This document shows, piece by piece, positions 13,744 to 35,082 of a stretch of DNA of 64,000 nucleotides. Location: NCBI GenBank assembly GCA_964016885.1, contig OZ024744.1, positions 130,944,001 through 131,008,000 of the forward strand, written 5' to 3'. Every line of letters starts with the position of its first letter. Position 1 is the stretch's first letter. Source of the DNA: Eledone cirrhosa. Its lineage: Eukaryota. Position numbers and translations under genes: made by a program. A model generated the notes under the pieces. It was not told the origin of the DNA. It saw only the letters and a program-made list of their open reading frames with translations, and ran no database searches.

Positions 13744-13944
13744 AACCCCAACTTAACTTAACCCCAACTTCACTCAACCCCAACGTAACTCAACCCCAAC
13801 TTAACTTAACCCCAACTTCACTCAACCCCAACTTAACTTAACCCCAACTTCACTCAACCCCAACTTAAGTCAACCCCAACTTAACTTAACCCCAACTTGA
13901 CTTAACCCCAACTTAAATTAGCCCCAACTTAACTTAAGCCCAAA
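13744..13944 (-). repeat. Inverted cassette 9 (type B, 201 bp)
   Basis: Markers CGTAACTC and AAATTAGCCCC; downstream GGGAGTAAG. Confidence 0.95.
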
Positions 13945-15611
13945 GTCGGGGTTAAGTTAAGTTGGCGTTATGTTAAGTCAGGCTTAACCTAAGTTGGGGT
14001 TCAGTTAAGTTGGGAGTAAGTTAAGTTGGGGGTAAGTTAAGTTGGGGTTAAATTAAGTTGCGGTTAAGTTGGGGTTAAGTTAAGTTAGGGTTAAGTTAAG
14101 TTGGGGTTGAGTTAAGTTGGGGTTAATTAAGTGGTGGTTATGTTAAGTTGGGGTTAATTTAAATTGGGGTTAAGTTAACTTTGTGGTTAAGTTCAGTTGG
14201 GGTTAAGTTAAGTTGGGGTTAAGTTGGGGTTGAGTTAAGTTGGGGTTGAGTGAAGTTGGGGTTAAGTTAAGTTGGGGTAAAGTTAAGTTGGGGTTAAGTT
14301 AAGTCGGGGTTGAGTTAAGTTGTGGTTGAGTTAAGTTGGGGTTAATTTAAGTTGGGGCTAAGTTAATTTGTGGTTAAGTTAAGTTGGGGTTAAGTTAAGT
14401 TGGGTTTAAGTTAAGTTGGGGTTAAATTAAGTTGGGGTTAAATTAAGTTGGGGTTAAGTTAAGTTGGGGGTAAGTTAAGTTGGGGGCAAGTTAAGTTGGG
14501 GCTAAGTTAAGTTGGGGTTAAATTAAGTTGGGGTTACGTTAAGTTGGTGTTAAGTTAAGTTGGGGTTAATTTAAGTTGGGGTTAATTAAGTTGGGGTTAA
14601 TTTAAGTTGGGGTTAAGTTAAGTTGGGGTTAATTTAAGTTGGGGTTGAGTTAAGTTGGGGTTAATTTAAGTTGGGGTTATATTAAGTTGGGGTTAAGTTA
14701 AGTTGGGGTTAATTTAAGTTGGGGTTAAGTTAAGTTGGGGTTTATTTAAGTTGGGGTTAAGTTAAGTTGGGGTTCAGTTAAGTTGGGGTTCAGTTAAGTT
14801 GGGGTTAAGTTAAGTTGGGGTTAAGATGGGGTTAAATTAAGTTGGGGTTAAGTTAAGTTGGGGTCAAGTTAAGTTGGGGTTAAGTTAAGTTGGGGTTAAG
14901 TTAAGTCGGGGTTAAGTTAAGTCGGGGTTAAGTTAAGTTAGGGTTCAGTTAAGTTGGGGTTAAGTTAAGTTGGGGTTGAGTTAAGTTGGGGTTGAGTTAA
15001 ATTGGGGTTGAGTTAAGTTGGGGTTGAGTTAAGTTGGTGTTGAGTTAAGTTGGGGTTAAGTTAAGTTGGGGTTAAGTTAAGTTGCAGTTAAGTTAAGTTG
15101 AGGTTAAGTTAAGGTGCGGTTAAGTTAAGTTGGGGTTAAGTTAAGTTGGGGCTAAGTTAAGTTGGGGCTAAGTTAAGTTGGGGTTAAGTTAAGTTGGGGT
15201 TAAGTTAAGTCGGGGTTAAGTTAAGTTGGGGTTAAGTTAAGTTGGGGTTAAGTTAAGTTGGGGTTAAGTTAAGTTGGGGTTAAGTTAAGTTGGGTTTAAG
15301 TTAAGTTGGGGTTAAGTCAAGTTGGGGTTAAGTTAAGTTGGGGTTAAGTTTAGTTGGTTAGTTAAGTTGAGTTTAAGTTAAGTTGGGGTTAATTTAAGTT
15401 GGAGTTAAGTTAATATGGGGTTAAGTTAAGTTGGGGTTAAGTTAAGTTGGGTTTAAGTTAAGTTGGGGTTAAGTTAAGTTGGGGTCAAGTTAAGTTGGGG
15501 TTAAGTTAAGTTGGTTAGTTAAGTCGAGTTTAAGTTAAGTTGGGGTTAATTTAAGTTGGGGTTAAGTTAAGTTGGGGTTAAGTTAAGTTGGGGTTAAGTT
15601 AAGTTGGGGTT

Positions 15612-15764
15612 AACCCCAACTTAACTTAACCCCAACTTCACTCAACCCCAACGTAACTCAACCCCAACTTAACTTAACCCCAACTTCACTCAACCCCAAC
15701 TTAACTTAACCCCAACTTCACTCAACCCCAACTTATGTCAACCCCAACTTAACTTAAGCCCAAA
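15612..15764 (-). repeat. Inverted cassette 10 (type C, 153 bp)
   Basis: Marker CTTATGTC. Confidence 0.95.
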
Positions 15765-17210
15765 GTCGGGGTTAAGTTAAGTTGGCGTTATGTTAAGTCA
15801 GGCTTAACTTAAGTTGGGGTTCAGTTAAGTTGGGGGTAAGTTAAGTTGGGGGTAAGTTAAGTTGGGGTTAAGTTAAGTTGCGGTTAGGTTGGGGTTAAGT
15901 TAAGTTAGGGTTAAGTTAAGTTGGGGTTGAGTTAAGTTGGGGTTAATTAAGTGGTGGTTATGTTAAGTTGGGGTTAATTTAAATTGGGGTTAAGTTAACA
16001 TTGTGGTTAAGTTAAGTTGGGGTTAAGTTAAGTTGGGGTTAAGTTGGGGTTGAGTTAAGTTGGGGTTGAGTGAAGTTGGGGTTAAGTTAAGTTGGGGTAA
16101 AGTTAAGTTGGGGTTAAGTTAAGTCGGGGTTAAGTTAAGTTGTGGTTGAGTTAAGTTGGGGTTAATTTAAGTTGGGGCTAAGTTAATTTGTGGTTAAGTT
16201 AAGTTGGGGTTAAGTTAAGTTGGGGTTGAGTTAAGTTGGGGTTGAGTTAATTTGGGGTTAAGTTAAGTTGGGGTTAAGTTAAGTTGGGTTTAAGTTAAGT
16301 TGGGGTTAAATTAAGTTGGGGTTAAATTAAGTTGGGGTTAAGTTAAGTTGGGGGTAAGTTAAGTTGGGGGCAAGTTAAGTTGGGGCTAAGTTAAGTTGGG
16401 GTTAAATTAAGTTGGGGTTACGTTAAGTTGGTGTTAAGTTAAGTTGGGGTTAATTTAAGTTGGGGTTAATTAAGTTGGGGTTAATTTAAGTTGGGGTTAA
16501 GTTAAGTTGGGGTTAATTTAAGTTGGGGTTGAGTTAAGTTGGGGTTAAGTTAAGTTGGGGTTATATTAAGTTGGGGTTAAGTTAAGTTGGGGTTAAGTTA
16601 AGTTGGGGTTAAGTTAAGTTGGGGTTTATTTAAGTTGGGGTTAAGTTAAGTTGGGGTTCAGTTAAGTTGGGGTTCAGTTAAGTTGGGGTTAAGTTAAGTT
16701 GGGGTTAAGATGGGGTTCAATTAAGTTGGGGTTAAGTTAAGTTGGGGTCAAGTTAAGTTGGGGTTAAGTTAAGTTGGGGTTAAGTTAAGTCGGGGTTAAG
16801 TTAAGTCGGGTTTAAGTTAAGTTAGGGTTCAGTTAAGTTGGGGTTAAGTTAAGTTGGGGTTGAGTTAAGTTGGGGTTGAGTTAAATTGGGGTTGAGTTAA
16901 GTTGGGGTTGAGTTAAGTTGGTGTTGAGTTAAGTTGGGGTTAAGTTAAGTTGGGGTTAAGTTAAGTTGGGGTTAATTTAAGTTGGGGTTAATTTAAGTTG
17001 GGGTTAATTTAAGTTGGGGTTAAGTTAAGTTGGGGTTAAGTTAAGTTGGGGTTAAGTTAAGTTGGGTTTAAGTTAAGTTGGGGTTAAGTTAAGTTGGGGT
17101 CAAGTTAAGTTGGGGTTAAGTTAAGTTGGTTAGTTAAGTCGAGTTTAAGTTAAGTTGGGGTTAATTTAAGTTGGGGTTAAGTTAAGTTGGGGTTAAGTTA
17201 AGTTGGGGTT

Positions 17211-17411
17211 AACCCCAACTTAACTTAACCCCAACTTCACTCAACCCCAACTTCACTCAACCCCAACTTAACTTAACCCCAACTTCACTCAACCCCAACT
17301 TAACTTAACCCCAACTTCACTCAACCCCAACTTAAGTCAACCCCAACTTAACTTAACCCCAACTTGACTTAACCCCAACTTAAATTAGCCCCAACTTAAC
17401 TTAAGCCCAAA
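17211..17411 (-). repeat. Inverted cassette 11 (type D, 201 bp)
   Basis: CGTA monomer replaced by a second CACTC monomer; AAATTAGCCCC. Confidence 0.95.
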
Positions 17412-18670
17412 GTCGGGGTTAAGTTAAGTTGGCGTTATGTTAAGTCAGGCTTAACTTAAGTTGGGGTTCAGTTAAGTTGGGGGTAAGTTAAGTTGGGGGT
17501 AAGTTAAGTTGGGGTTAAGTTAAGTTGCGGTTAAGTTGGGGTTAAGTTAAGTTAGGGTTAAGTTAAGTTGGGGTTGAGTTAAGTTGGGGTTAATTAAGTG
17601 GTGGTTATGTTAAGTTGGGGTTAATTTAAATTGGGGTTAAGTTAACATTGTGGTTAAGTTAAGTTGGGGTTAAGTTAAGTTGGGGTTAAGTTGGGGTTGA
17701 GTTAAGTTGGGGTTGAGTGAAGTTGGGGTTAAGTTAAGTTGGGGTAAAGTTAAGTTGGGGTTAAGTTAAGTCGGGGTTAAGTTAAGTTGTGGTTGAGTTA
17801 AGTTGGGGTAAAGTTAAGTTGGGGTTAAGTTAAGTTGGGGTTAAGTTAAGTTGGGGTTGAGTTAAGTTGGGGTTGAGTTAATTTGGGGTTAAGTTAAGTT
17901 GGGGTTAAGTTAAGTTGGGTTTAAGTTAAGTTGGGGTTAAATTAAGTTGGGGTTAAATTAAGTTGGGGTTAAGTTAAGTTGGGGGTAAGTTAAGTTGGGG
18001 GCAAGTTAAGTTGGGGCTAAGTTAAGTTGGGGTTAAATTAAGTTGGGGTTACGTTAAGTTGGTGTTAAGTTAAGTTGGGGTTAATTTAAGTTGGGGTTAA
18101 TTAAGTTGGGGTTAATTTAAGTTGGGGTTAAGTTAAGTTGGGGTTAATTTAAGTTGGGGTTGAGTTAAGTTGGGGTTAAGTTAAGTTGGGGTTATATTAA
18201 GTTGGGGTTAGGTTAAGTTGGGGTTAAGTTAAGTTGGGGTTAAGTTAAGTTGGGGTTTATTTAAGTTGGGGTTAAGTTAAGTTGGGGTTAATTTAAGTTG
18301 GGGTTGAGTTAAGTTGGTGTTGAGTTAAGTTGCGGTTATGTTAAGTTGGGGTTAAGTTAAGTTGGGGTTAAGTTAAGTTGGGGCTGAGTTAAGTTGGGGC
18401 TGAGTTAAGTTGGGGTTAAGTTAAGTTGGGGTTAAGTTAAGTCGGGGTTAAGTTAAGTTGGGGTTAAGTTAAGTTGGGGTTAAGTTAAGTTGGGGTTAAG
18501 TTAAGTTGGGGTTAAGTTAAGTTGGGTTTAAGTTAAGTTGGGGTTAAGTTAAGATGGGGTCAAGTTAAGTTGGGGTTAAGTTAAGTTGGTTAGTTAAGTT
18601 GAGTTTAAGTTAAGTTGGGGTTAATTTATGTTGGGGTTAAGTTAAGTTGGGGTTAAGTTAAGTTGGGGTT

Positions 18671-18871
18671 AACCCCAACTTAACTTAACCCCAACTTCAC
18701 TCAACCCCAACGTAACTCAACCCCAACTTAACTTAACCCCAACTTCACTCAACCCCAACTTAACTTAACCCCAACTTCACTCAACCCCAACTTAAGTCAA
18801 CCCCAACTTAACTTAACCCCAACTTGACTTAACCCCAACTTAACTTAGCACGAACTTAACTTAAGCCCAAA
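18671..18871 (-). repeat. Inverted cassette 12 (type E, 201 bp)
   Basis: Marker TTAGCACGAAC. Confidence 0.95.
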
Positions 18872-20172
18872 GTCGGGGTTAAGTTAAGTTGGCGTTAAGT
18901 TAAGTTAGGCTTAACTTAAGTTGGGGTTCAGTTAAGTTGGGGGTAAGTTAAGTTGGGGGTAAGTTAAGTTGGGGTTAAGTTAAGTTGCGTTTAAGTTGGG
19001 GTTAAGTTAAGTTAGGGTTAAGTTAAGTTGGGATTAAGTTAAGTTGGGGATAATTTAAGTTGGGGTTAAGTTGGGGTTAATTTAACTTGGGGCTAAGTTA
19101 ATTTGTGGTTAAGTTAAGTTGGGGTTAAGTTAAGTTGGGGTTAAGTTAAGTTGGGGTTGAGTTAAGTTGGGGTTGAGTTAATTTGGGGTTAATTTAAGTT
19201 GGGGTTAAGTTAAGTTGGGTTTAAGTTAAGTTGGGGTTAAATTAAGTTGGGGTTAAATTAAGTTGGGGTTAAGTTAAGTTGGGGGTAAGTTAAGTTGGGG
19301 GCAAGTTAAGTTGGGGCTAAGTTAAGTTGGGGTTAAATTAAGTTGGGGTTACGTTAAGTTGGTGTTAAGTTAAGTTGGGGTTAATTTAAGTTGGGGTTAA
19401 TTAAGTTGGGGTTAAGTTAAGTTGGGGTTAAGTTAAGTTGGGGTTTAGTTAAGTTGGGGTTAAGTTAAGTTGGGGTTTATTTAAGTTGGGGTTAAGTTAA
19501 GTTGGGGTTCAGTTAAGTTGGGGTTCAGTTAAGTTGGGGTTAAGTTAAGTTGGGGTTAAGATGGGGTTAAATTAAGTTGGGGTTAAGTTAAGTTGGGGTT
19601 AAGTTAAGTTCGGGGTTAAGTTAAGTTGGGGTTAAGTTAAGTCGGGGTTAAGTTAAGTCGGGGTTAAGTTAAGTTAGGGTTCAGTTAAGTTGGGGTTAAG
19701 TTAAGTTGGGGTTGAGTTAAGTTGGGGTTGAGTTAAATTGGGGTTGAGTTAAGTTGGGGTTGAGTTAAGTTGGTGTTGAGTTAAGTTGCGGTTATGTTAA
19801 GTTGGGGTAAGTTAAGTTGGGGTTAAGTTAAGTTGGGGCTAAGTTAAGTTGGGGCTGAGTTAAGTTGGGGTTAAGTTAAGTTGGGGTTAAGTTAAGTCGG
19901 GGTTAAGTTAAGTTGGGGTTAAGTTAAGTTGGGGTTAAGTTAAGTTGGGGTTAATTAAGTTGGGGTTAAGTTAAGTTGGGGTTAAGTTTAGTTGGGTTTA
20001 AGTTAAGTTGGGGTTAAGTTAAGTTGGGGTCAAGTTAATTTGGGGTTAAGTTAAGTTGGTTAGTTAAGTTGAGTTTAAGTTAAGTTGGGGTTAATTTATG
20101 TTGGGGTTAAGTTAAGTTGGGGTTAAGTTAAGTTGGGGTTAAGTTAAGTTGGGGTTAAGTTAAGTTGGGGTT

Positions 20173-20373
20173 AACCCCAACTTAACTTAACCCCAACGTA
20201 ACTCAACCCCAACGTAACTCAACCCCAACTTAACTTAACCCCAACTTCACTCAACCCCAACTTAACTTAACCCCAACTTCACTCAACCCCAACTTAAGTC
20301 AACCCCAACTTAACTTAACCCCAACTTGACTTAACCCCAACTTAACTTAGCACCAACTTAACTTAAGCCCAAA
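20173..20373 (-). repeat. Inverted cassette 13 (type F, 201 bp)
   Basis: Two consecutive CGTAACTC monomers; TTAGCACCAAC. Confidence 0.95.
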
Positions 20374-21583
20374 GTCGGGGTTAAGTTAAGTTGGCGTTAA
20401 GTTAAGTTAGGCTTAACTTAAGTTGGGGTTCAGTTAAGTTGGGGGTAAGTTAAGTTGGGGGTAAGTTAAGTTGTGGTTAAGTTAAGTTGCGTTTAAGTTG
20501 GGGTTAAGTTAAGTTAGGGTTAAGTTAAGTTGGGGTTAAGTTAAGTTGGGGTTAATTTAAATTGGGGTTAAGTTAACTTTGTGGTTAAGTTAAGTTGGGG
20601 TTAAGTTAAGTTGGGGTTAAGTTGGGGCTAATTTAAGTTGGGGCTAAGTTAATTTGTGGTTAAGTTAAGTTGGGGTTAAGTTAAGTTGGGGTTAAGTTAA
20701 GTTGGGGTTGAGTTAAGTTGGGGTTGAGTTAATTTGGGGTTAATTTAAGTTGGGGTTAAGTTAAGTTGGGGCTAAGTTAAGTTGGGGCTAAGTTAAGTTG
20801 GGGCTAAGTTAAGTTGGGGTTAGGTTAAGTCGGGGTTAAGTTAAGTCGGGGTTAAGTTAAGTTGGCGTTAAGTTAAGTTGGGGTTAATTTAAGTTGGGGT
20901 TAAGTTAAGTTGGGGTTAATTTAAGTTGGGGTTAAGTTAAGTTGCGGGTAATTTAAGTTGGGGTTAAGTTAAGTTGGGGTTAAGTTAAGTTGGGGTTATG
21001 TTAAGTTGGTTAGTTAAGTTGAGTTTAAGTTAAGTTGGGGTTAATTTATGTTGGGGTTAAGTTAAGTTGGGGTTAAGTTAAGTTGGGGTTAATTTAAGTT
21101 GGGGTTAAGTTAAGTTGCGGGTAATTTAAGTTGGGGTTAAGTTAAGTTGGGGTTAAGTTAAGTTGGGGTTATGTTAAGTTGGGGTTAAGTTAAGTTGGGG
21201 TTAAGTTAAGTTGGGGCTAAGTTAAGTTGGGGCTGAGTTAAGTTGGGGTTAAGTTAAGTTGGGGTTAAGTTAAGTTGGGGATAAGTTAAGTTGGGGTTAA
21301 GTTAAGTTGGGGTTTATTTAAGTTGGGGTTAATTTAAGTTGGGGTTCAGTTAAGTTGGGGTTAAGTTAAGTTGGGGTTAAGTTAAGTTGGGGTTAAGTTA
21401 AGTTGGGGTTAAGTTAAGTTGGGTTTAAGTTAAGTTGGGGTTAAGTTAAGTTGGGGTCAAGTTAAGTTGGGGTTAAGTTAAGTTGGTTAGTTAATTTGAG
21501 TTTAAGTTAAGTTGGGGTTAATTTTTGTTGGGGTTAAGTTAAGTTGGGGTTAAGTTAAGTTGGGGTTAAGTTAAGTTGGGGTT

Positions 21584-21784
21584 AACCCCAACTTAACTTA
21601 ACCCCAACTTCACTCAACCCCAACGTAACTCAACCCCAACTTAACTTAACCCCAACTTCACTCAACCCCAACTTAACTTAACCCCAACTTCACTCAACCC
21701 CAACTTAAGTCAACCCCAACTTAACTTAACCCCAACTTGACTTAACCCCAACTTAACTTAGCACCAACTTAACTTAAGCCCAAA
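21584..21784 (-). repeat. Inverted cassette 14 (type G, 201 bp)
   Basis: Single CGTA monomer; TTAGCACCAAC; upstream AATTTTTGTT. Confidence 0.95.
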
Positions 21785-24700
21785 GTCGGGGTTAAGTTAA
21801 GTTGGCGTTAAGTTAAGTTAGGCTTAACTTAAGTTGGGGTTCAGTTAAGTTGGGGGTAAGTTAAGTTGGGGGTAAGTTAAGTTGGGGTTAAGTTAAGTTG
21901 CGTTTAAGTTGGGGTTAAGTTAAGTTAGGGTTAAGTTAAGTTGGGGTTAATTTAAATTGGGGTTAAGTTAACTTTGTGGTTAAGTTAAGTTGGGGTTAAG
22001 TTAAGTTGGGGTTAAGTTGGGGTTAATTTAAGTTGGGGCTAAGTTAATTTGTGGTTAAGTTAAGTTGGGGTTAAGTTAAGTTGGGGTTAAGTTAAGTTGG
22101 GGTTGAGTTAAGTTGGGGTTGAGTTAATTAGGGGTTAAATTAAGTTGGGGTTAAGTTAAGTTGGGGGTAAGTTAAGTTGGGGCTAAGTTAAGTTGGGGTT
22201 AAATTAAGTTGGGGTTACGTTAAGTTGGTGTTAAGTTAAGTTGGGGTTAATTTAAGTTGGGGTTAATTAAGTTGGGGTTAAGTTAAGTTGGGGTTAAGTT
22301 AAGTTGGGGTTTATTTAAGTTGGGGTTAAGTTAAGTTGGGGTTCAGTTAAGTTGGGGTTCAGTTAAGTTGGGGTTAATTTAAGTTGGGGTTAAGATGGGG
22401 TTAAATTAAGTTGGGGTTAAGTTAAGTTTGGGTTAAGTTAAGTTGGGGTTAAGTTAAGTTGGGGTTAAGTTAAGTCGGGGTTAAGTTAAGTCGGGGTTAA
22501 GTTAAGTTAGGGTTCAGTTAAGTTGGGGTTAAGTTAAGTTGGGGTTGAGTTAAGTTGGGGTTGAGTTAAATTGGGGTTGAGTTAAGTTGGGGTTGAGTTA
22601 AGTTGGTGTTGACTTAAGTTGGGGTTAAGTTAAGTTGGGGTTAAGTTAAGTTGCAGTTAAGTTAAGTTGAGGTTAAGTTAAGGTGCGGTTAAGTTAAGTT
22701 GGGGTTAAGTTAAGTTGGGGCTAAGTTAAGTTGGGGCTAATTTAAGTTGGGGCTAAGTTACGTTGGGGTTAGGTTAAGTTGGGGTTAAGTTAAGTCGGGG
22801 TTAAGTTAAGTTGGCGTTAAGTTAATTTGGGGTTAATTTAAGTTGGGGTTAAGTTAAGTTGGGGTTAAGTTAAGTTGGGGTTAAGTTAAGTTGGGGTTAT
22901 GTTAAGTTGGGGTTAAGTTAAGTTGGGGTTAAGTTAAGTTGGGGCTAAGTTAAGTTGGGGCTGAGTTAAGTTGGGGTTAAGTTAAGTTGGGGTTAAGTTA
23001 AGTTTGGGATAAGTTAAGTTGGGGTTAAGTTAAGTTGGGGTTTATTTAAGTTGGGGTTAATTTAAGTTGGGGTTCAGTTAAGTTGGGGTTCAGTTAAGTT
23101 GGGGTTAAGTTAAGTTGGGGTTTATTTAAGTTGGGGTTAATTTAAGTCGGGGTTAAGTTAAGTCGGGGTTCAGTTAATAAAGGGTTAAGTTAAGTTGGGG
23201 TTAAGTTAAGTTGGGGTTGTGTTAAGTTGGGGTTGAGTTAAATTGGGGTTGAGTTAAGTTGGGGTTGAGTTAAGTTGGTGTTCAGTTAAGTTGGGGTTAA
23301 GTTAAGTTGGGGTTAATTTAAGTTGCAGTTAAGTTAAGTTGAGGTTAAGTTAAGGTGGGGTTAAGTTAAGTTGGGGTTAGTTTAAGTTGGGGCTAAGCTA
23401 AGTTGGGGCTAAGTTAAGTTGGGGCTAAGTTAAGTTGGGGTTAAGTTAAGTTGGGGTATATTAAGTTGGGGTTAAGTTAAGTTGGGGTTAAGTTAAGTTG
23501 GGGTTAAGTTAAGTTGGGGCTGAGTTAAGTTGGGGCTGAGTTAAGTTGGGGCTGAGTTAAGTTGGGGTTAAGTTAAGTTGGGGTATATTAAGTTGGGGTT
23601 AAGTTAAGTTGGGGTTAAGTTAAGTTGGGGTTAAGTTAAGTTGGGGCTGAGTTAAGTTGGGGCTTAGTTAAGTTGGGGTTAAGTTAAGTTGGGGTTAAGT
23701 TAAGTTGGGGTTAAGTTAAGTTGGGGTTAAGTTAAGTTGAGGTTAAGTTAAGTTGGGGTTAAATTAAGTTGGGGTTAAGTTAAGTTGGGGTTAAGTTAAG
23801 TTGGGGTTAAGTTAAGTTGGGGATATGTTAAGTTGGGGATGAGTTAAATTGGGGTTAAGTTAAGTTGGGTTTAAGTTAAGTTGGGGTTAAGTTAAGTTGG
23901 GGTTAAGTTAAGTTGGGGTTAAGTTAAGTTGGTTAGTTAAGTTGAGTTTAAGTTAAGTTGGGGTTAATTTAAATCGGGGTTAAGTTAAGTTAGGGTTAAG
24001 TTAAGTTGGGGTTGAGTTAAGTTGGGGTTGAGTTAAATTGGGGTTGAGTTAAGTTGGGGTTGAGTTAAGTTGGTGTTGAGTTAAGTTGGGGTTAAGTTAA
24101 GTTGGGGTTAAGTTAAGTTGTGGTTAAGTTAAGTTGAGGTTAAGTTAAGTTGGGGTTAAGTTAAGTTGGGGTTAATTTAAGTTGGGGCTAAGTTAAGTTG
24201 GGGCTAAGTTAAGTTGGGGTTAAGTTAAGTTGGGGTCAACTTAAGTTGGGGTTAAGTTAAGTTGGCGTTAAGTTAAGTTGGGGTTAAGTTAAGTTGGGGT
24301 TAAGTTAAGTTGGTGTTAAGTTAAGTTGGGGCTGAGTTAAGTTGGGGCTGAGTTAAGTTGGGGCTGAGTTAAGTTGGGGTTCAGTCAAGTTGGGGTTAAG
24401 TTAAGTTGGGGTTATTTTAAGTTGGGGTTTAGTTAAGTTGGGGTTCATTTAAGTTGGGGTTAAGTTAAGTTTGGGTTAAGTTGGGGTTAAATTAATTTGG
24501 GGTTAAATGAAGTTGGGGTTAAGTTAAGTTGGGGTTAAGTTAAGTTGGGGTTAATTTAAGTTGGGGTTAAGTTAAGTTGCGGGTAATTTAAGTTGGGGTT
24601 AAGTTAAGTTGGGGTTAAGTTAAGTTGGGGTTAAGTTAAGTTTGGGTTAAGTTAAGTTGGGGTTAAGTTAATTTGGGGTTAAGTTGGGGTTAAGTTAAGT

Positions 24701-25115
24701 TGGGGTTTATTTAAGTTGGGGTTAAGTTAAGTTGGGGTTCAGTTAAGTTGGGGTTCAGTTAAGTTGGGGTTAAGTTAAGCTGGGGTTAAGATGGGGTTAA
24801 ATTAAGTTGGGGTTAAGTTAAGTTGGTTAGTTAAGTTGAGGTTAAGTTAAGTTGGGCTTAAGTTAAGTTGGGGTTAATTTAAGTTGGGGTTAAGTTAAGT
24901 TGGGGTTAAGTTAAGTTGGGGTTAAGTCAAGTTGGGGTTAAGTTAAGTTGGGGTTGAGTTAAGTTGGGGTTGAGTGAAGTTGGGGTTAAGTTAAGTTGGG
25001 GTTAAGTTAAGTTGGGGTTAAGTTAAGTTGGGGTCAAGTTAAGTTAGGGTTAAGTTAAGTTGGGGTTAAGTTAAGTTGGCGTTAAGTTAATTTGTGGTTA
25101 AGTTAAGTTGGGGTT

Positions 25116-25316
25116 AACCCCAACTTAACTTAACCCCATTTTCACTCAAACCCAACTTAACTCAACCCCAACTTAACTTAACCCCAGCTTCACTCAACCC
25201 CAACTTAACTTAACCCCAACTTCACTCAACCCCAACTTAACTCAACCCCAACTTAACTTAATCCCAACTTGACTTAACCCCAACTTAACTTAACCCCAAC
25301 TTAACTTAACCCCAAA
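25116..25316 (-). repeat. Inverted cassette 15 (type H, divergent, 201 bp, single copy in window)
   Basis: Same junction positions but ends CCCCAAAGTCGGGG; lacks CGTA/AAGTC/AGCCC markers; private changes CCCCATTTTCAC, CCCCAGCTT, AATCCC. Confidence 0.95.
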
Positions 25317-26468
25317 GTCGGGGTTAAGTTAAGTTGGGGGTAAGTTAAGTTGGGATTAAGTTGGGGTTAAGTTAAGTTAGGGTTAAGTTAAGTTGGGGTT
25401 AAGTTAAGTTGGGGTTAAGTTGGGGTTAAATTAAGTTGGGGCTAAGTTAATTTGTGGTTAAGTTAAGTTGGGGTTAAGTTAAGTTGGGGTTAAGTTAAGT
25501 TGCGTTTAAGTTGGGGTTAAGTTAAGTTAGGGTTAAGTTAAGTTGGGGTTAAGTTAAGTTGGGGTTAATTTAAATTGGGGTTAAGTTAACTTTGTGGTTA
25601 AGTTAAGTTGGGGTTAAGTTAAGTTGGGGTTAAGTTGGGATTAATTTAAGTTGGGGCTAAGTTAATTTGTGGTTAAGTTAAGTTGGGGTTAAGTTAAGTT
25701 GGGGTTAAGTTAAGTTGCGGGTAATTTAAGTTGGCGTTAAGTTAAGTTGGGGTTAAGTTAAGTTGGGGTTAAGTTAAGTTGGGGTTAAGTTAAGTTGGGG
25801 TTTATTTAAGTTGGGGTTAAGTTAAGTTGGGGTTCAGTTAAGTTGGGGTTCAGTTAAGTTGGGGTTAAGTTAAGTTGGGGTTAAGATGGGGTTAAATTAC
25901 GTTGGAGTTAAGTTAAGTTGGGGTTAAGTTAAGTTGGGGTTAAGTTAAGTTGGGGTTAAGTTAAGTCGGGGTTAATTTAAGTCGGGGTTAAGTTAAGTTA
26001 GGGTTCAGTTAAGTTGGGGTTAAGTTAAGTTGGGGTTGAGTTAGTTGGGGTCGAGTTAAATTGGGGTTGAGTTAAGTTGGGCTTGAGTTAAGTTGGTGTT
26101 GAGTTAAGTTGGGGTTAAGGTAAATTGGGGTTAATTTAAGTTGCAGTTAAGTTAAGTTGAGGTTAAGTTAAGGTGCGGTTAAGTTAAGTTGGGGTTAAGT
26201 TAAGTTGGGGCTAAGTTAAGTTGGGGCTAAGTTAAGTTGGGGCTAAGTTAAGTTGGGGTTAAGTTAAGTTGGGGTTAAGTTAAGTCGGGGTTAAGTTAAG
26301 TTGGGGTTAAGTTAAGTTGGGGTTAATTTAAGTTGGGGTTAAGTTAAGTTGGGGTTAAGTTAAGTTGGGGTTAAGTTAAGTTGGGTTTAAGTTAAGTTGG
26401 GGTTAAGTTAAGTTGGGGTTAAGTTAAGTTGGGGTTAAGTTAAGTTGGGGTTAAGTTAAGTTGGGGTT

Positions 26469-26596
26469 AACCCCAACTTAACTTAACCCCAACTTCACTC
26501 AACCCCAACTTAACTTAACCCCAACTTCACTCAACCCCAACTTCCAACTTGACTTAACCCCAACTTAACTTAGCCCCAACTTAACTTAAGCCCAAA
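26469..26596 (-). repeat. Inverted cassette 16 (type A, 128 bp)
   Basis: Same markers as cassette 8. Confidence 0.95.
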
Positions 26597-28597
26597 GTCG
26601 GGGTTAAGTTAAGTTTGCGTTAAGTTAAGTTAGGCTTAACTTAAGTTGGGGTTCAGTTAAGTTGGGGGTAAGTTAAGTTGGGGTTAAGTTAAGTTGCGGT
26701 TAAGTTGGGGTTAAGTTAAGTTAGGGTTAAGTTAATTTGGGGTTGAGTTAAGTTGGGGTTAATTAAGTGGTGGTTATGTTAAGTTGGGGTTAAGTTAAGT
26801 TGGGGTTAATTTAAATTGGGGTTAAGTTAACTTTGTGGTTAAGTTAAGTTGGGGTTAAGTTAAGTGGGGGTAAAGTTGGGGTTGAGTTAAGTTGGGGTTG
26901 AGTGAAGTTGGGGTTAAGTTAAGTTGGGGTTAAGTTAAGTTGGGGTTAAGATAAGTCGGGGTTAAGTTAAGTTGTGGTTGAGTTAAGTTGGGGTTAATTT
27001 AAGTTGGGGCTAAGTTAATTTGTGGTTAAGTTAAGTTGGGGTTAAGTTAAGTTGGGGTTAAGTTAAGTTGGGGTTGAGTTAAGTTGGGGTTGAGTTAATT
27101 TGGGGTTAAGTTAAGTTGGGGTTAAGTTAAGTTGGGTTTAAGTTAAGTTGGGGTTAAATTAAGTTGGGGTTAAATTAAGTTGGGGTTGAGTTAAGTTGGG
27201 GGTAAGTTAAGTTGGGGGCAAGTTAAGTTGGGGTTAATTTAAGTTGGGGTTAAATTAAGTTGGGGTTACGTTAAGTTGGTGTTAAGTTAAGTTGGGGTTA
27301 ATTTAAGTTGGGGTTAATTAAGTTGGGGTTAAGTTAAGTTGGGGTTAAGTTAAGTTGGGGTTAAGTTAAGTTGGTGTTAAGTTAAGTTGGGGCTAAGTTA
27401 AGTTGGGGCTGAGTTAAGTTGGGGCTGAGTTAAGTTGGGGCTAAGTTAAGTTGGGGTTGAGTTATGTTGGGGTTAAGTTAAGTTGGGGTCAAGTTAAGTT
27501 GGGGTTAAGTTGGGGTTAAGTTAAGTTAGGTTTAAGTTAAGTTGGGGTTAAGTTAAGTTGGGGTTAAGTTAAGTTGGGGTTAAGTTAAGTTAGGTTTAAG
27601 TTAAGTTGGGGTTAAGTTAAGTTGGGGTTAAGTTAAGTTGGGGTTAAGTTAAGTTGGGGTTAAGTTAAGTTGAGGTTAAGTTAAGTTGGGGTTAAATTAA
27701 GTTGGGGTTAAGTTAAGTTGGGGTTAAGTTAAGTTGGGGATAAGTTAAGTTGGGGATAATTTAAGTTGGGGTTAAGTTAAGTTGGGTTTAAGTTAAGTTG
27801 GGGTTAAGTTAAGTTGGGGTTAAGTTAAGTTGGGGTTAAGTTAAGTTGGGGTTAAGTTAAGTTGGGGTTCAGTTAAGTTGGGGTTCAGTTAAGTTGGGGT
27901 TAAGTTAAGTTGGGGTTAAGATGGGGCTAAATTAAGTTGGGGTTAAGTTAAGTTGGGGTTAAGTTAAGTTGGGGTTAAGCTAAGTTGGGGTTAAGTTAAG
28001 TCGGGGTTAAGTTAAGTCGGGGTTAAGTTAAGTTAGGGTTCAGTTAAGTTGGGGTTAAGTTAAGTTGGGGTTGAGTTAAGTTGGGGTTGAGTTAAATTGG
28101 GGTTAAGTTAAGTTGGGGTTGAGTTAAGTTGGTGTTGTGTTAAGTTGGGGTTAAGTTAAGTTGGGGTTAAGTTAAGTTGCAGTTAAGTTAAGTTGAGGTT
28201 AAGTTAAGGTGCGGTTAAGTTAAGTTGGGGTTAAGTTAAGTTGGGGCTAAGTTAAGTTGGGGCTAAGTTAAGTTGGGGCTAAGTTAAGTTGGGGTTAAGT
28301 TAAGTCGGGGTTAAGTTAAGTTGGGGTTAAGTTAAGTTGGGGTTAATTTAAGTTGGGGTTAAGTTAAGTTGGGGTTAAGTTAAGTTGGGGTTAAGTTAAG
28401 TTGGGGTTAAGTTAAGTTGGGTTTAAGTTAAGTTGGGGTTAAGTTAAGTTGGGGTCAAGTTAAGTTGGGGTTAAGTTAAGTTGGTTAGTTAAGTCGAGTT
28501 TAAGTTAAGTTGGGGTTAATTTAAGTTGGGGTTAAGTTAAGTTGGGGTTAAGTTAAGTTGGGGTTAAGTTAAGTTGGGGTTAAGTTAAGTTGGGGTT

Positions 28598-28798
28598 AAC
28601 CCCAACTTAACTTAACCCCAACTTCACTCAACCCCAACGTAACTCAACCCCAACTTAACTTAACCCCAACTTCACTCAACCCCAACTTAACTTAACCCCA
28701 ACTTCACTCAACCCCAACTTAAGTCAACCCCAACTTAACTTAACCCCAACTTGACTTAACCCCAACTTAAATTAGCCCCAACTTAACTTAAGCCCAAA
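28598..28798 (-). repeat. Inverted cassette 17 (type B, 201 bp)
   Basis: As cassette 9; downstream GGCAGTAAG. Confidence 0.95.
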
Positions 28799-30433
28799 GT
28801 CGGGGTTAAGTTAAGTTGGCGTTATGTTAAGTCAGGCTTAACTTAAGTTGGGGTTCAGTTAAGTTGGCAGTAAGTTAAGTTGGGGGTAAGTTAAGTTGGG
28901 GTTAAATTAAGTTGCGGTTAAGTTGGGGTTAAGTTAAGTTAGGGTTAAGTTAAGTTGGGGTTGAGTTAAGTTGGGGTTAATTAAGTGGTGGTTATGTTAA
29001 GTTGGGGTTAATTTAAATTGGGGTTAAGTTAACTTTGTGGTTAAGTTCAGTTGGGGTTAAGTTAAGTTGGGGTTAAGTTGGGGTTGAGTTAAGTTGGGGT
29101 TGAGTGAAGTTGGGGTTAAGTTAAGTTGGGGTAAAGTTAAGTTGGGGTTAAGTTAAGTCGGGGTTGAGTTAAGTTGTGGTTGAGTTAAGTTGGGGTTAAT
29201 TTAAGTTGGGGCTAAGTTAATTTGTGGTTAAGTTAAGTTGGGGTTAAGTTAAGTTGGGTTTAAGTTAAGTTGGGGTTAAATTAAGTTGGGGTTAAATTAA
29301 GTTGGGGTTAAGTTAAGTTGGGGGTAAGTTAAGTTGGGGGCAAGTTAAGTTGGGGCTAAGTTAAGTTGGGGTTAAATTAAGTTGGGGTTACGTTAAGTTG
29401 GTGTTAAGTTAAGTTGGGGTTAATTTAAGTTGGGGTTAATTAAGTTGGGGTTAATTTAAGTTGGGGTTAAGTTAAGTTGGGGTTAATTTAAGTTGGGGTT
29501 GAGTTAAGTTGGGGTTAATTTAAGTTGGGGTTATATTAAGTTGGGGTTAAGTTAAGTTGGGGTTAATTTAAGTTGGGGTTAAGTTAAGTTGGGGTTTATT
29601 TAAGTTGGGGTTAAGTTAAGTTGGGGTTCAGTTAAGTTGGGGTTCAGTTAAGTTGGGGTTAAGTTAAGTTGGGGTTAAGATGGGGTTAAATTAAGTTGGG
29701 GTTAAGTTAAGTTGGGGTCAAGTTAAGTTGGGGTTAAGTTAAGTTGGGGTTAAGTTAAGTCGGGGTTAAGTTAAGTCGGGGTTAAGTTAAGTTAGGGTTC
29801 AGTTAAGTTGGGGTTAAGTTAAGTTGGGGTTGAGTTAAGTTGGGGTTGAGTTAAATTGGGGTTGAGTTAAGTTGGGGTTGAGTTAAGTTGGTGTTGAGTT
29901 AAGTTGGGGTTAAGTTAAGTTGGGGTTAAGTTAAGTTGCAGTTAAGTTAAGTTGAGGTTAAGTTAAGGTGCGGTTAAGTTAAGTTGGGGTTAAGTTAAGT
30001 TGGGGCTAAGTTAAGTTGGGGCTAAGTTAAGTTGGGGTTAAGTTAAGTTGGGGTTAAGTTAAGTTGGGGTTAAGTTAAGTTGGGGTTAAGTTAAGTTGGG
30101 GTTAAGTTAAGTTGGGTTTAAGTTAAGTTGGGGTTAAGTCAAGTTGGGGTTAAGTTAAGTTGGGGTTAAGTTTAGTTGGTTAGTTAAGTTGAGTTTAAGT
30201 TAAGTTGGGGTTAATTTAAGTTGGAGTTAAGTTAATATGGGGTTAAGTTAAGTTGGGGTTAAGTTAAGTTGGGTTTAAGTTAAGTTGGGGTTAAGTTAAG
30301 TTGGGGTCAAGTTAAGTTGGGGTTAAGTTAAGTTGGTTAGTTAAGTCGAGTTTAAGTTAAGTTGGGGTTAATTTAAGTTGGGGTTAAGTTAAGTTGGGGT
30401 TAAGTTAAGTTGGGGTTAAGTTAAGTTGGGGTT

Positions 30434-30586
30434 AACCCCAACTTAACTTAACCCCAACTTCACTCAACCCCAACGTAACTCAACCCCAACTTAACTTAAC
30501 CCCAACTTCACTCAACCCCAACTTAACTTAACCCCAACTTCACTCAACCCCAACTTATGTCAACCCCAACTTAACTTAAGCCCAAA
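30434..30586 (-). repeat. Inverted cassette 18 (type C, 153 bp)
   Basis: Marker CTTATGTC. Confidence 0.95.
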
Positions 30587-31984
30587 GTCGGGGTTAAGTT
30601 AAGTTGGCGTTATGTTAAGTCAGGCTTAACTTAAGTTGGGGTTCAGTTAAGTTGGGGGTAAGTTAAGTTGGGGGTAAGTTAAGTTGGGGTTAAGTTAAGT
30701 TGCGGTTAGGTTGGGGTTAAGTTAAGTTAGGGTTAAGTTAAGTTGGGGTTGAGTTAAGTTGGGGTTAATTAAGTGGTGGTTATGTTAAGTTGGGGTTAAT
30801 TTAAATTGGGGTTAAGTTAACATTGTGGTTAAGTTAAGTTGGGGTTAAGTTAAGTTGGGGTTAAGTTGGGGTTGAGTTAAGTTGGGGTTGAGTGAAGTTG
30901 GGGTTAAGTTAAGTTGGGGTAAAGTTAAGTTGGGGTTAAGTTAAGTCGGGGTTAAGTTAAGTTGTGGTTGAGTTAAGTTGGGGTTAATTTAAGTTGGGGC
31001 TAAGTTAATTTGTGGTTAAGTTAAGTTGGGGTTAAGTTAAGTTGGGGTTGAGTTAAGTTGGGTTTAAGTTAAGTTGGGGTTAAATTAAGTTGGGGTTAAA
31101 TTAAGTTGGGGTTAAGTTAAGTTGGGGGTAAGTTAAGTTGGGGGCAAGTTAAGTTGGGGCTAAGTTAAGTTGGGGTTAAATTAAGTTGGGGTTACGTTAA
31201 GTTGGTGTTAAGTTAAGTTGGGGTTAATTTAAGTTGGGGTTAATTAAGTTGGGGTTAATTTAAGTTGGGGTTAAGTTAAGTTGGGGTTAATTTAAGTTGG
31301 GGTTGAGTTAAGTTGGGGTTAAGTTAAGTTGGGGTTATATTAAGTTGGGGTTAAGTTAAGTTGGGGTTAAGTTAAGTTGGGGTTAAGTTAAGTTGGGGTT
31401 TATTTAAGTTGGGGTTAAGTTAAGTTGGGGTTCAGTTAAGTTGGGGTTCAGTTAAGTTGGGGTTAAGTTAAGTTGGGGTTAAGATGGGGTTCAATTAAGT
31501 TGGGGTTAAGTTAAGTTGGGGTCAAGTTAAGTTGGGGTTAAGTTAAGTTGGGGTTAAGTTAAGTCGGGGTTAAGTTAAGTCGGGTTTAAGTTAAGTTAGG
31601 GTTCAGTTAAGTTGGGGTTAAGTTAAGTTGGGGTTGAGTTAAGTTGGGGTTGAGTTAAATTGGGGTTGAGTTAAGTTGGGGTTGAGTTAAGTTGGTGTTG
31701 AGTTAAGTTGGGGTTAAGTTAAGTTGGGGTTAAGTTAAGTTGGGGTTAATTTAAGTTGGGGTTAATTTAAGTTGGGGTTAATTTAAGTTGGGGTTAAGTT
31801 AAGTTGGGGTTAAGTTAAGTTGGGGTTAAGTTAAGTTGGGTTTAAGTTAAGTTGGGGTTAAGTTAAGTTGGGGTCAAGTTAAGTTGGGGTTAAGTTAAGT
31901 TGGTTAGTTAAGTCGAGTTTAAGTTAAGTTGGGGTTAATTTAAGTTGGGGTTAAGTTAAGTTGGGGTTAAGTTAAGTTGGGGTT

Positions 31985-32185
31985 AACCCCAACTTAACTT
32001 AACCCCAACTTCACTCAACCCCAACTTCACTCAACCCCAACTTAACTTAACCCCAACTTCACTCAACCCCAACTTAACTTAACCCCAACTTCACTCAACC
32101 CCAACTTAAGTCAACCCCAACTTAACTTAACCCCAACTTGACTTAACCCCAACTTAAATTAGCCCCAACTTAACTTAAGCCCAAA
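31985..32185 (-). repeat. Inverted cassette 19 (type D, 201 bp)
   Basis: As cassette 11. Confidence 0.95.
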
Positions 32186-33396
32186 GTCGGGGTTAAGTTA
32201 AGTTGGCGTTATGTTAAGTCAGGCTTAACTTAAGTTGGGGTTCAGTTAAGTTGGGGGTAAGTTAAGTTGGGGGTAAGTTAAGTTGGGGTTAAGTTAAGTT
32301 GCGGTTAAGTTGGGGTTAAGTTAAGTTAGGGTTAAGTTAAGTTGGGGTTGAGTTAAGTTGGGGTTAATTAAGTGGTGGTTATGTTAAGTTGGGGTTAATT
32401 TAAATTGGGGTTAAGTTAACATTGTGGTTAAGTTAAGTTGGGGTTAAGTTAAGTTGGGGTTAAGTTGGGGTTGAGTTAAGTTGGGGTTGAGTGAAGTTGG
32501 GGTTAAGTTAAGTTGGGGTAAAGTTAAGTTGGGGTTAAGTTAAGTCGGGGTTAAGTTAAGTTGTGGTTGAGTTAAGTTGGGGTAAAGTTAAGTTGGGGTT
32601 AAGTTAAGTTGGGGTTAAGTTAAGTTGGGGTTGAGTTAAGTTGGGGTTGAGTTAATTTGGGGTTAAGTTAAGTTGGGGTTAAGTTAAGTTGGGTTTAAGT
32701 TAAGTTGGGGTTAAATTAAGTTGGGGTTAAATTAAGTTGGGGTTAAGTTAAGTTGGGGGTAAGTTAAGTTGGGGGCAAGTTAAGTTGGGGCTAAGTTAAG
32801 TTGGGGTTAATTTAAGTTGGGGTTAATTAAGTTGGGGTTAATTTAAGTTGGGGTTAAGTTAAGTTGGGGTTAATTTAAGTTGGGGTTGAGTTAAGTTGGG
32901 GTTAAGTTAAGTTGGGGTTATATTAAGTTGGGGTTAGGTTAAGTTGGGGTTAAGTTAAGTTGGGGTTAAGTTAAGTTGGGGTTTATTTAAGTTGGGGTTA
33001 AGTTAAGTTGGGCTTAATTTAAGTTGGGGTTGAGTTAAGTTGGTGTTGAGTTAAGTTGCGGTTATGTTAAGTTGGGGTTAAGTTAAGTTGGGGTTAAGTT
33101 AAGTTGGGGCTGAGTTAAGTTGGGGCTGAGTTAAGTTGGGGTTAAGTTAAGTTGGGGTTAAGTTAAGTCGGGGTTAAGTTAAGTTGGGGTTAAGTTAAGT
33201 TGGGGTTAAGTTAAGTTGGGGTTAAGTTAAGTTGGGGTTAAGTTAAGTTGGGTTTAAGTTAAGTTGGGGTTAAGTTAAGATGGGGTCAAGTTAAGTTGGG
33301 GTTAAGTTAAGTTGGTTAGTTAAGTTGAGTTTAATTTAAGTTGGGGTTAATTTATGTTGGGGTTAAGTTAAGTTGGGGTTAAGTTAAGTTGGGGTT

Positions 33397-33597
33397 AACC
33401 CCAACTTAACTTAACCCCAACTTCACTCAACCCCAACGTAACTCAACCCCAACTTAACTTAACCCCAACTTCACTCAACCCCAACTTAACTTAACCCCAA
33501 CTTCACTCAACCCCAACTTAAGTCAACCCCAACTTAACTTAACCCCAACTTGACTTAACCCCAACTTAACTTAGCACGAACTTAACTTAAGCCCAAA
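33397..33597 (-). repeat. Inverted cassette 20 (type E, 201 bp)
   Basis: Marker TTAGCACGAAC. Confidence 0.95.
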
Positions 33598-34881
33598 GTC
33601 GGGGTTAAGTTAAGTTGGCGTTAAGTTAAGTTAGGCTTAACTTAAGTTGGGGTTCAGTTAAGTTGGGGGTAAGTTAAGTTGGGGGTAAGTTAAGTTGGGG
33701 TTAAGTTAAGTTGCGTTTAAGTTGGGGTTAAGTTAAGTTAGGGTTAAGTTAAGTTGGGATTAAGTTAAGTTGGGGATAATTTAAGTTGGGGTTAAGTTGG
33801 GGTTAATTTAACTTGGGGCTAAGTTAATTTGTGGTTAAGTTAAGTTGGGGTTAAGTTAATTTGGGGTTAAGTTAAGTTGGGGTTGAGTTAAGTTGGGGTT
33901 GAGTTAATTTGGGGTTAATTTAAGTTGGGGTTAAGTTAAGTTGGGTTTAAGTTAAGTTGGGGTTAAATTAAGTTGGGGTTAAATTAAGTTGGGGTTAAGT
34001 TAAGTTGGGGGTAAGTTAAGTTGGGGGCAAGTTAAGTTGGGGCTAAGTTAAGTTGGGGTTAAATTAAGTTGGGGTTACGTTAAGTTGGTGTTAAGTTAAG
34101 TTGGGGTTAATTTAAGTTGGGGTTAATTAAGTTGGGGTTAAGTTAAGTTGGGGTTAAGTTAAGTTGGGGTTTATTTAAGTTGGGGTTAAGTTAAGTTGGG
34201 GTTCAGTTAAGTTGGGGTTCAGTTAAGTTGGGGTTAAGTTAAGTTGGGGTTAAGATGGGGTTAAATTAAGTTGGGGTTAAGTTAAGTTGGGGTTAAGTTA
34301 AGTTGGGGTTAAGTTAAGTTGGGGTTAAGTTAAGTCGGGGTTAAGTTAAGTCGGGGTTAAGTTAAGTTAGGGTTCAGTTAAGTTGGGGTTAAGTTAAGTT
34401 GGGGTTGAGTTAAGTTGGGGTTGAGTTAAATTGGGGTTGAGTTAAGTTGGGGTTGAGTTAAGTTGGTGTTGAGTTAAGTTGCGGTTATGTTAAGTTGGGG
34501 TAAGTTAAGTTGGGGTTAAGTTAAGTTGGGGCTAAGTTAAGTTGGGGCTGAGTTAAGTTGGGGTTAAGTTAAGTTGGGGTTAAGTTAAGTCGGGGTTAAG
34601 TTAAGTTGGGGTTAAGTTAAGTTGGGGTTAAGTTAAGTTGGGGTTAATTAAGTTGGGGTTAAGTTAAGTTGGGGTTAAGTTTAGTTGGGTTTAAGTTAAG
34701 TTGGGGTTAAGTTAAGTTGGGGTCAAGTTAATTTGGGGTTAAGTTAAGTTGGTTAGTTAAGTTGAGTTTAAGTTAAGTTGGGGTTAATTTATGTTGGGGT
34801 TAAGTTAAGTTGGGGTTAAGTTAAGTTGGGGTTAAGTTAAGTTGGGGTTAAGTTAAGTTGGGGTTAAGTTAAGTTGGGGTT

Positions 34882-35082
34882 AACCCCAACTTAACTTAAC
34901 CCCAACGTAACTCAACCCCAACGTAACTCAACCCCAACTTAACTTAACCCCAACTTCACTCAACCCCAACTTAACTTAACCCCAACTTCACTCAACCCCA
35001 ACTTAAGTCAACCCCAACTTAACTTAACCCCAACTTGACTTAACCCCAACTTAACTTAGCACCAACATAACTTAAGCCCAAA
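34882..35082 (-). repeat. Inverted cassette 21 (type F, 201 bp)
   Basis: Double CGTA; sub-variant CACCAACATAAC. Confidence 0.95.

Follow-up and report, generated by a model that had tools for sequence, protein, structure and literature searches.

A mirrored patch beside an inverted satellite cassette in Eledone cirrhosa, probably copied from the cassette onto its neighbouring arm

Introduction

Inverted copies of a sequence on one DNA molecule exchange sequence non-reciprocally, which leaves stretches of identity between the arms. In fold-back models, including origin-dependent inverted-repeat amplification (ODIRA), duplication-inverted triplication-duplication (DUP-TRP/INV-DUP) and template switching, the symmetry runs from the junction and the forward copy is the older one. 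We here analyzed a stretch of 64,000 nucleotides of Eledone cirrhosa, hereafter the window (C28:130,944,001-131,008,000, contig OZ024744.1, in a single assembly of a 3.0-Gb genome), which consists of a 16-bp satellite holding 36 short inverted blocks, or cassettes. Beside cassette H, number 15 of the 36 (25,116-25,317), the forward strand carries rare monomer variants of the cassette in mirrored order. The original prediction took this forward stretch for the surviving template of the cassette, copied in reverse by a fold-back or template switch. Our analysis points the other way: the mirrored patch was probably written from the cassette onto the arm by one conversion event or template switch involving the two inverted repeats, at a time when the cassette family was already in place, and was later amplified with its higher-order unit.

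Arm-to-arm gene conversion is reported for the large sex-chromosome palindromes of primates and mice (PMC8600007, 10.1101/800185). As in those palindromes, the arm identity at our locus would stem from a proposed transfer between arms on one molecule. The sex-chromosome palindromes, however, exceed 10 kb and bear genes, whereas the arms here are ~200-290 bp of satellite monomers, with one 120-bp patch that lies 32 bp out of register and adds 53 bp to the arm, and with no sign of continuing homogenization of whole arms. The locus also resembles the fold-back models, in that the inverted copy adjoins forward sequence with the same markers and the head junction falls in the self-complementary TTAA of the monomer, and a template switch may still have made the patch. 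For the whole cassette, in contrast, both the symmetry outward from the junction and the greater age of the forward copy fail.

Among satellites, Tribolium TmSat2 has ~300-bp inverted repeats in a 704-bp monomer with conserved inversion sites (PMC13081366). The Tribolium satellites (TmSat2, the T. brevicornis major satellite and the macro-dyad symmetries) share with our array the inverted segments of a few hundred bp within the unit, the conserved sites and the predicted hairpins. Indeed, the inverted segment described here is part of an amplified unit with conserved inversion sites, as expected of dyad-symmetric satellites. In contrast to those satellites, our monomer is only 16 bp, the inverted block of 127-490 bp is a minor insert in units of 1-4 kb rather than half of the unit, and the part of the array that we read holds no kilobase-scale alternating sub-arrays, except for one nested 2.5-kb inversion. 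In cichlid centromeres, satellite orientation switches around paired inverted 'centroids' (PMC13652916). Orientation switches are a regular structural feature in both systems, but those of cichlids are set by ~15-kb non-satellite elements, about four per centromere, whereas the present array has hundreds of small blocks made of the satellite itself.

The mirrored patch beside cassette H

The monomers that had been listed for the forward strand are correct: a GGGC monomer (24,854-24,869) is followed by TTAATTTAAG (24,870-24,885), two consensus monomers (24,886-24,917), TTAAGTCAAG (24,918-24,933, with C at 24,928), a further consensus monomer, TTGAGTTAAG (24,950-24,965) and TTGAGTGAAG (24,966-24,981, with G at 24,976). 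The mirrored markers in the cassette, at 25,271 and 25,223, lie 155.5 and 107.5 bp from the palindrome centre and their forward partners 187.5 and 139.5 bp, in agreement with the 32-bp offset noted previously. The reverse-complement reading given for the B-type cassettes is likewise right, namely for cassettes 6, 9, 11, 17, 19, 25, 27, 31 and 33 of the 36.

We segmented the monomers by wrap-around alignment, weighted matches by rarity, and aligned the reverse complements of cassette H and of B-type cassette 9 with the 3,609 forward monomers of the window by a monomer-level Smith-Waterman procedure, thereby running the check that the original prediction had suggested. The single best hit ended at 24,997, with scores of 23.2 (H) and 21.3 (B), while the runners-up reached 13.1 and 10.7. 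None of 500 monomer shuffles attained either score, their maxima being 21.1 and 20.8, which leaves a thin margin for the B-type query. Base by base, 24,884-25,003 agrees with the reverse-complemented stretch 25,196-25,315 at 119 of 120 positions. The same patch recurs at other loci, so that the identity is 119/120 in the window and at three further loci and 120/120 at seven, and in all 11 cases it ends 2 bases past the outer and 6 bases past the inner end of a 112-bp core. The core intuition of the original prediction, that the two arms share copied sequence, is confirmed.

In total we read 664 kb around the window, and read or sampled more than 1.3 Mb of the array. When 290 cassettes were each scored against the 30 monomers of their own upstream sequence, values above 20 were obtained only at the 11 patched loci (25.8 at seven, 22.3 at four) and at two giant nested inversions. 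Since only 11 of 290 cassettes, apart from the giants, pass this value, the event looks single and exceptional.

The markers differ in weight. The mirrored order as such stands, but TTAATTTAAG contributes little to it. No variant is more frequent (206 forward copies within the window), and together with a landmark 13-mer it forms part of the usual upstream flank of nearly all cassettes; its supposed partner CTAATTTAAG, found in 38 of the 200 B-type cassettes, is weak as well. The forward pair TTGAGTTAAG/TTGAGTGAAG is real but not unique to the cassette H site, because 21 of the 23 forward TTGAGTGAAG monomers in the window lie 285-301 bp downstream of cassettes, each after TTGAGTTAAG. What is unique is the forward combination GTCA, consensus, TTGAGTTA, TTGAGTGA, which, searched genome-wide as an exact 58-mer, does not occur in cassette-free satellite.

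The regularity of this pair offers a route without any transfer between the arms, in which the forward TTGAGTTA/TTGAGTGA came by unequal exchange between forward sequences, from the pair ~300 bp downstream, and landed beside an old GTCA. The fixed spacing of the pair and the forward GTCA, an old feature of the arm, speak for such an exchange, as does the fact that window shuffles reach 21.1 against the observed 23.2. The context of the patch makes it highly improbable, since an 11-mer stands before the regular pair and GGGGTAAAG after it, whereas the pair in the patch has a full consensus monomer before it and consensus after it, just as in the cassette. Furthermore, patch and cassette match over 120 bp without a mismatch at seven loci, and the monomer before GTCA has also changed, from TTCAG to the consensus state of the cassette.

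As side observations on the same pair, it stands 285-301 bp past the tails of 21 of the 36 cassettes (for example at 848-879 and 14,230-14,261), and in long cassettes it is found across the tail, at a distance of ~370 bp. This placement did not suffice to demonstrate that an old symmetry about the tail has left a remnant here.

Patched and unpatched arms

Genome-wide, the 58-mer of the patch has 11 forward and 28 reverse copies, always within C28 130.94-131.30 Mb, and seven forward/reverse pairs lie 298 bp apart. The H palindrome is thus an amplified unit and not a lone relic, and near-identical copies of the arm and its flanks are indeed present at 130,939,059, 131,008,876, 131,019,244 and 131,034,284. 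Among the 37 loci of the H family, 11 have the mirrored arm, in two haplotypes. Twenty-five have TTCAG, GTCA, an 11-mer and AAATT at the site of the patch, in at least a dozen haplotypes and with the same cassette block, and the remaining locus has a shortened arm in neither state. Diverged forms of the unmirrored motif also occur in the flanks of L-type cassettes, the long family. As an exact 34-mer, the unpatched motif GTCA, 11-mer, AAATT has 138 forward copies in the genome, spread over more than 530 kb (C28 131.046 to >131.578 Mb), and its distance from the cassette heads varies, with some copies lying >1 kb from the nearest head.

At the patched loci, the patch is embedded in arm sequence that the unpatched loci also have: distally arm monomers F15-F18 (13-mer, GAGG, GGGC, AATTT), and proximally F1-F5 (TCAAG, AGGG, consensus, ..AATTT and GTGG, read toward the centre). 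From the 13-mer to the centre, patched arms measure 291 bp and unpatched arms 238 bp, a difference of 53 bp. The proximal arm (25,004-25,115) is common to the non-mirrored H loci and does not mirror the cassette. Thus, the cassette reads consensus, GGGT-TTGAGTGAAAAT, TTGAGTTA, consensus, TTGAGTGAAGCT in R1-R5, whereas the arm reads GTGG, GGCG..T, consensus, AGGG, TCAAG, consensus, consensus in F1-F7. The matching block starts only 86 bp from the centre in the cassette and 112 bp from it in the arm, with the 32 bp offset.

The cassettes next to the patch have the basic H haplotype, which otherwise accompanies unpatched arms, plus one private change in monomer R2, where GAAGTT has become GAAAAT. 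In the patch we find TTGAGTTA, the state of the H and L families, and not TTGACTTA, the state of the B family, so that the donor fits the neighbouring cassette. The locus therefore offers what is expected of conversion between arms: the inverted repeat was there beforehand (291 members in 664 kb, with homologous cassettes 6 Mb away), the identical patch is bounded on both sides by sequence that the arms do not share, and the state of the recipient before the event is visible in the paralogues, while the donor is unchanged. Gene conversion between the arms, which the original prediction had named as its alternative, is the reading that we favour.

Cassette history and the question of a template

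Long cassettes have 15 monomers between GTCA and TTGAGTTA, with many variants (at least eight distinct variant monomers). An alignment of H with L gives a single 240-bp gap, L 1-47 matching H 1-47 and L 288-439 matching H 48-199, with 2 and 4 mismatches, respectively; a 240-bp deletion thus separates the short H and B forms from the long ones. The internal segment is common to the L family (131.06-131.43 Mb) and to the cassettes of an oppositely oriented block at C28:124.61-124.69 Mb, some 6 Mb apart. Because two blocks share it, the long form is most simply ancestral, in which case a deletion within the cassette brought GTCA, consensus and TTGAGTTA together. The forward arm would accordingly appear to reproduce a derived adjacency that was born by that deletion.

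This history bears directly on the proposal that the forward stretch is the surviving template of the cassette, itself made by fold-back or template-switch copying of the adjacent upstream DNA. The proposal implies that the mirrored arm is ancestral, that the other arms lost 53 bp, and that the long cassettes gained 240 bp later. Some observations agree with it. Rare variants are indeed mirrored beside the inverted copy, as the 119/120 identity and the best ordered match attest, and both the identity and the marker order are real; a 53-bp deletion and two substitutions suffice to turn the patched arm into the common one; the forward GGGC and AATTT before the block stand in the same order as GGGC and CTAATTT in some B cassettes; and a tree of the flanks lacks the nesting of the H1 clade inside the H2 clade. 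Yet the symmetry should then run from the junction, a short spacer being allowed, and mirroring is absent from the innermost part of both, over 86 bp in the cassette and 112 bp in the arm. The 15-monomer segment would have to be an insertion, although it is common to two blocks 6 Mb apart in opposite orientation. Neither does the forward arrangement look older, to judge from the rooting that we propose: it is confined to 11 loci that are nearly identical, whereas the unpatched motif has 138 copies, and in the tree the midpoint root has L flanks on either side. Finally, CTAATTT is a minority state, seen in 38 of the 200 B cassettes. With 11 loci, an internal patch, an adjacency derived by deletion and no symmetry about the centre, the template claim is not supported, and we regard it as unlikely.

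A forward template for the long cassettes was also sought, by aligning reverse-complemented L cassettes with both flanks and with 37,548 forward monomers under two scoring schemes, and only short matches were obtained. These were the TTGAGTTA/TTGAGTGA pair (14-14.5) and a run of GTC, GTC, consensus, AGGG, .., TTGAGTTA ~1.1 kb away (16.7), and in these alignments neither flank adjoining the long cassettes stood out as a template. Two further sets of candidates were discarded. Ten forward hits of a 34-mer on C18 belong to an unrelated run of GTCA, GTCA, consensus and TTGATTTA in a cassette-free array. The succession TTGAGTGA, consensus, TTGAGTGA gave 74 forward hits, of which the first 12, at 124.6 Mb, are cassettes of the oppositely oriented block and not forward templates.

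For the flank tree, the 420 bp that follow the tail were analyzed by maximum likelihood (117 haplotypes, midpoint root). Two tight, separate clades, H1 and H2 (100/99 each), fall in a common group (99/92) together with 10 L haplotypes and one B haplotype. The presence of L-type flanks on both sides of the root fits an old L form, although a midpoint root carries little weight in an array that recombines.

Direction and mechanism of the copying

Copying from the cassette to the arm, rather than the reverse, is suggested by four kinds of evidence: the distribution of the arm states, the origin of the adjacency, the internal position of the patch and the cassettes that stand beside it. Several observations weigh against this direction. 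In an unrooted view, the opposite polarity is equally simple, as a 53-bp deletion and two point changes turn a patched arm into an unpatched one. In the flank tree, H1, H2 and the L flanks related to them branch in no resolved order and H1 is not nested in H2, and H and B share the short form and yet sit in different groups; cassette and flank histories thus disagree, which indicates that recombination has reshuffled the units. In addition, the GGGC of the forward arm matches the terminal GGGC of B cassettes, and forward GGGC is rare (57 of 37,548 monomers); if the cassette was the donor, this match remains to be treated as a coincidence. The polarity is not proven, and its root is placed by the long cassettes that two blocks share, by how common and varied the unpatched motif is and by the consensus-like states, rather than by an outgroup species.

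If the patch was copied from the cassette, the event probably started with a break or a stalled fork in the forward arm of an H-type unit with the common arm, repaired off the inverted cassette ~200 bp away on the same molecule. Pairing may have been seeded by GTCA and the surrounding consensus monomers, which were already common to both arms. At most 120 bp would have been copied, and with tandem repeats as partners the tract would have been placed two monomers out of mirror register, making the arm 53 bp longer. The unit would then have been amplified to 11 copies spaced 10-40 kb apart, as a 10-40 kb super-repeat, and a later G-to-A change in the cassette would mark the four leftmost copies, that of the window included. 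Hairpin gene conversion, synthesis-dependent repair and replication template switching cannot be told apart from sequence.

The fold predicted for single-stranded DNA of 24,854-25,317 has an energy of -215.3 kcal/mol (shuffles -67.2, standard deviation 5.3), with the register shifted and the patch paired, and the patch is predicted to lengthen the perfect stem of a potential hairpin or cruciform. A more general process may also be imagined, in which satellite inverted blocks lengthen their own palindromes because repair or replication at the head junction repeatedly copies the cassette into the opposite arm. In that event, the patched H loci would be stem growth to 120 bp caught in the act and spread with the unit, and dyad symmetry would be self-reinforcing; we consider this a doubtful extension.

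Should the cassette indeed be the donor, the locus would represent a clean and datable small-scale transfer between satellite inverted repeats, with the donor, the recipient, the state before the event and the later amplification all visible within one assembly. It would also show that, in tandem DNA, mirrored markers next to an inversion do not reveal where its template lay, because copying from arm to arm can mimic a fold-back origin. Symmetry at the junction is uninformative too, since any inverted piece in a tandem array gives palindromic junctions from its consensus monomers. The case is likely a small and clear example of known processes, an ordinary by-product of repeat turnover and unsurprising in kind.

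Organization of the cassette H locus

The features of the locus are collected in Table 1. In a global alignment of 21,786-26,470 with 36,495-40,537, cassette H proved not to be the positional homologue of the neighbouring B cassettes in the window.

Table 1. Satellite array and cassette H locus, in window coordinates
Feature	Coordinates	Strand	Remarks
16-bp satellite array	1..63996	+	Tandem Repeats Finder (TRF); spans the window and holds the 36 inverted cassettes
H-family higher-order unit, ~2 kb	24051..26042	+	among B-type units; aligns poorly with the paralogous unit 38,764-40,124
Distal forward arm	24825..24885	+	13-mer GGTTAGTTAAGTT, then GAGG, GGGC and TTAATTTAAG monomers; also at unpatched H loci
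Mirror patch, probable recipient	24884..25003	+	consensus, consensus, GTCA, consensus, TTGAGTTA, TTGAGTGA, consensus
Proximal forward arm	25004..25115	+	consensus monomers, GGGGTCAAG, AGGG, consensus, GGCG..AATTT, GTGG, GGGGTT
Head-to-head junction GGGGTT/AACCCC	25110..25121	.	centre between 25,115 and 25,116
Cassette H, 12.5-monomer inverted block	25116..25317	-	H-family markers TTGAGTGAAGCT and GGGTTTGAGTGAAAAT
Distal half of cassette H, probable donor	25196..25315	-	same sequence in H-type cassettes with unpatched arms
Tail junction CCCCAAAGTCGGGG	25310..25323	.	H form; intermediate between those of L (CCCCAAATTCGGGG) and B (GCCCAAAGTCGGGG)

In the four leftmost patched H cassettes, GTCA is succeeded by a GGGA monomer (25,250-25,265 in the window). 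The same succession occurs in cassettes of the 124.6-Mb block (124.655 Mb), either by coincidence or by shared ancestry.

Cassette families

Twenty-four of the 36 cassettes in the window are 200 bp long (12.5 monomers), six are 152 bp, three 127 bp, two 175 bp and one 136 bp. All 36 begin at the head centre GGGGTT/AACCCC and finish at the tail ..CCCAAAG/TCGGGG. Their length classes recur in a fixed order, which makes the cassettes part of a nested higher-order repeat. Nearly all of the 291 inverted segments in the 664 kb have the head junction GGGGTT/AACCCC or a one-base variant of it. The B family has 200 copies of 129-202 bp, with the tail GCCCAAAGTCGGGG; the H family has 37 copies of ~202 bp, with the tail CCCCAAAGTCGGGG and in a few cases CCCAAAAGTCGGGG; and the L family has 54 copies, with lengths of 314-490 bp and, in two giant segments, of 797 and 1,350 bp, and with the tail CCCCAAATTCGGGG and rarely CCCCGAATTCGGGG. 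The tail junctions are related across families (CCC[C/A]AA[A/T/G]..CGGGG), and the B/H tail junction has 383 copies in the genome, in a single orientation throughout, from 130.248 Mb onward. We conclude that one ancient inverted block has been carried in the higher-order repeat and has diversified into L, H and B. The array repeats this ancient inversion hundreds of times, in three to four length families, and has an oppositely oriented sister block; it may help the study of how satellites tolerate and propagate palindromes. The tail CCCCGAATTCGGGG had been considered as an ancestral perfect palindrome, an idea that was dropped in view of its handful of copies against ~47 with CCCCAAATTCGGGG.

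These regularities also bear on whether the cassettes and the palindrome could be an artefact of long-read assembly. Satellites are hard to assemble, and the unitigs of public runs, at ~60 nt, are too short to span the structure. An artefact would nevertheless have to produce 291 inverted segments in structured families with conserved junctions and higher-order periodicity, and a distal junction in 383 copies all of one orientation. Furthermore, 30 of 30 bins of 24,700-25,500, both junction bins included, are covered in runs X4-X6, which are one sample, possibly the assembled one, and whose ~60-nt unitigs neither show nor exclude long-range structure; a difference-free 60-nt unitig at 25,157-25,216 includes the H-specific AGCT variant. 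In run X1, which has another organism label, 26 of 30 bins are covered, and 25,078-25,185 has no cover. Taken together, we give an artefact hardly any credence.

Some cassettes depart from the usual arrangement. Cassettes 5 and 6 (7,499-8,049 in the window) are 199 bp apart instead of the usual 1-3.5 kb, which looks like a local duplication of a cassette with its upstream flank. The site 23,990-24,050, homologous to cassette 23 (38,567-38,766), has the upstream landmark followed by TTAATTTAAATCGGGG and no cassette, either through a clean loss of the cassette or as a recombinant join of two unit types. At C28:131,323,655-131,326,134, the two giant inverted segments of 1,350 and 797 bp flank ~340 bp that read 'forward', and this piece matches a reverse-complemented L cassette with a score of 62.9 (others ~20). 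The pair looks like a secondary inversion of a whole unit of ~2.5 kb, which would have returned its cassette to the forward orientation.

The satellite array and its genomic setting

In the window, TRF gives a period of 16 over 1-63,996, with 4036.8 copies, 87% matches and the consensus GGGGTTAAGTTAAGTT. None of the papers searched for this 16-mer contained it in six rotations or strands. On C28, a contig of 136.5 Mb, the satellite is found at 124.6 Mb and from 130.2 to >131.58 Mb. The array has no cassettes left of 130.247 Mb and long cassettes right of 131.428 Mb; the cassette-free left part measures at least 17 kb (C28:130,230,001-130,247,000), and the first cassette stands at ~130,247,8xx. 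The oppositely oriented block of the same satellite (C28:124,612,001-124,694,000) has its own cassettes of ~300 bp, with the head junction as elsewhere and the tail CCGATTTTGGGG on the + strand, and the satellite ends near 124.691 Mb, where a 200-N gap is also found. A further array of the 16-bp satellite on C18 (10.40-10.52 Mb; 10,395,001-10,528,000) has different variant monomers (GTCA runs, TTGATTTA and TTGAATTA), and no inverted blocks were found in the 50 kb sampled there.

Throughout the window, short monomers of 11 bp, GGGGTTAAGTT and GGGGTTAAGAT, occupy fixed positions in the higher-order units. In them, the TTAAG/TTAAG half-repeat inside the 16-bp monomer becomes visible, and a signal of period 11 is also given by TRF.

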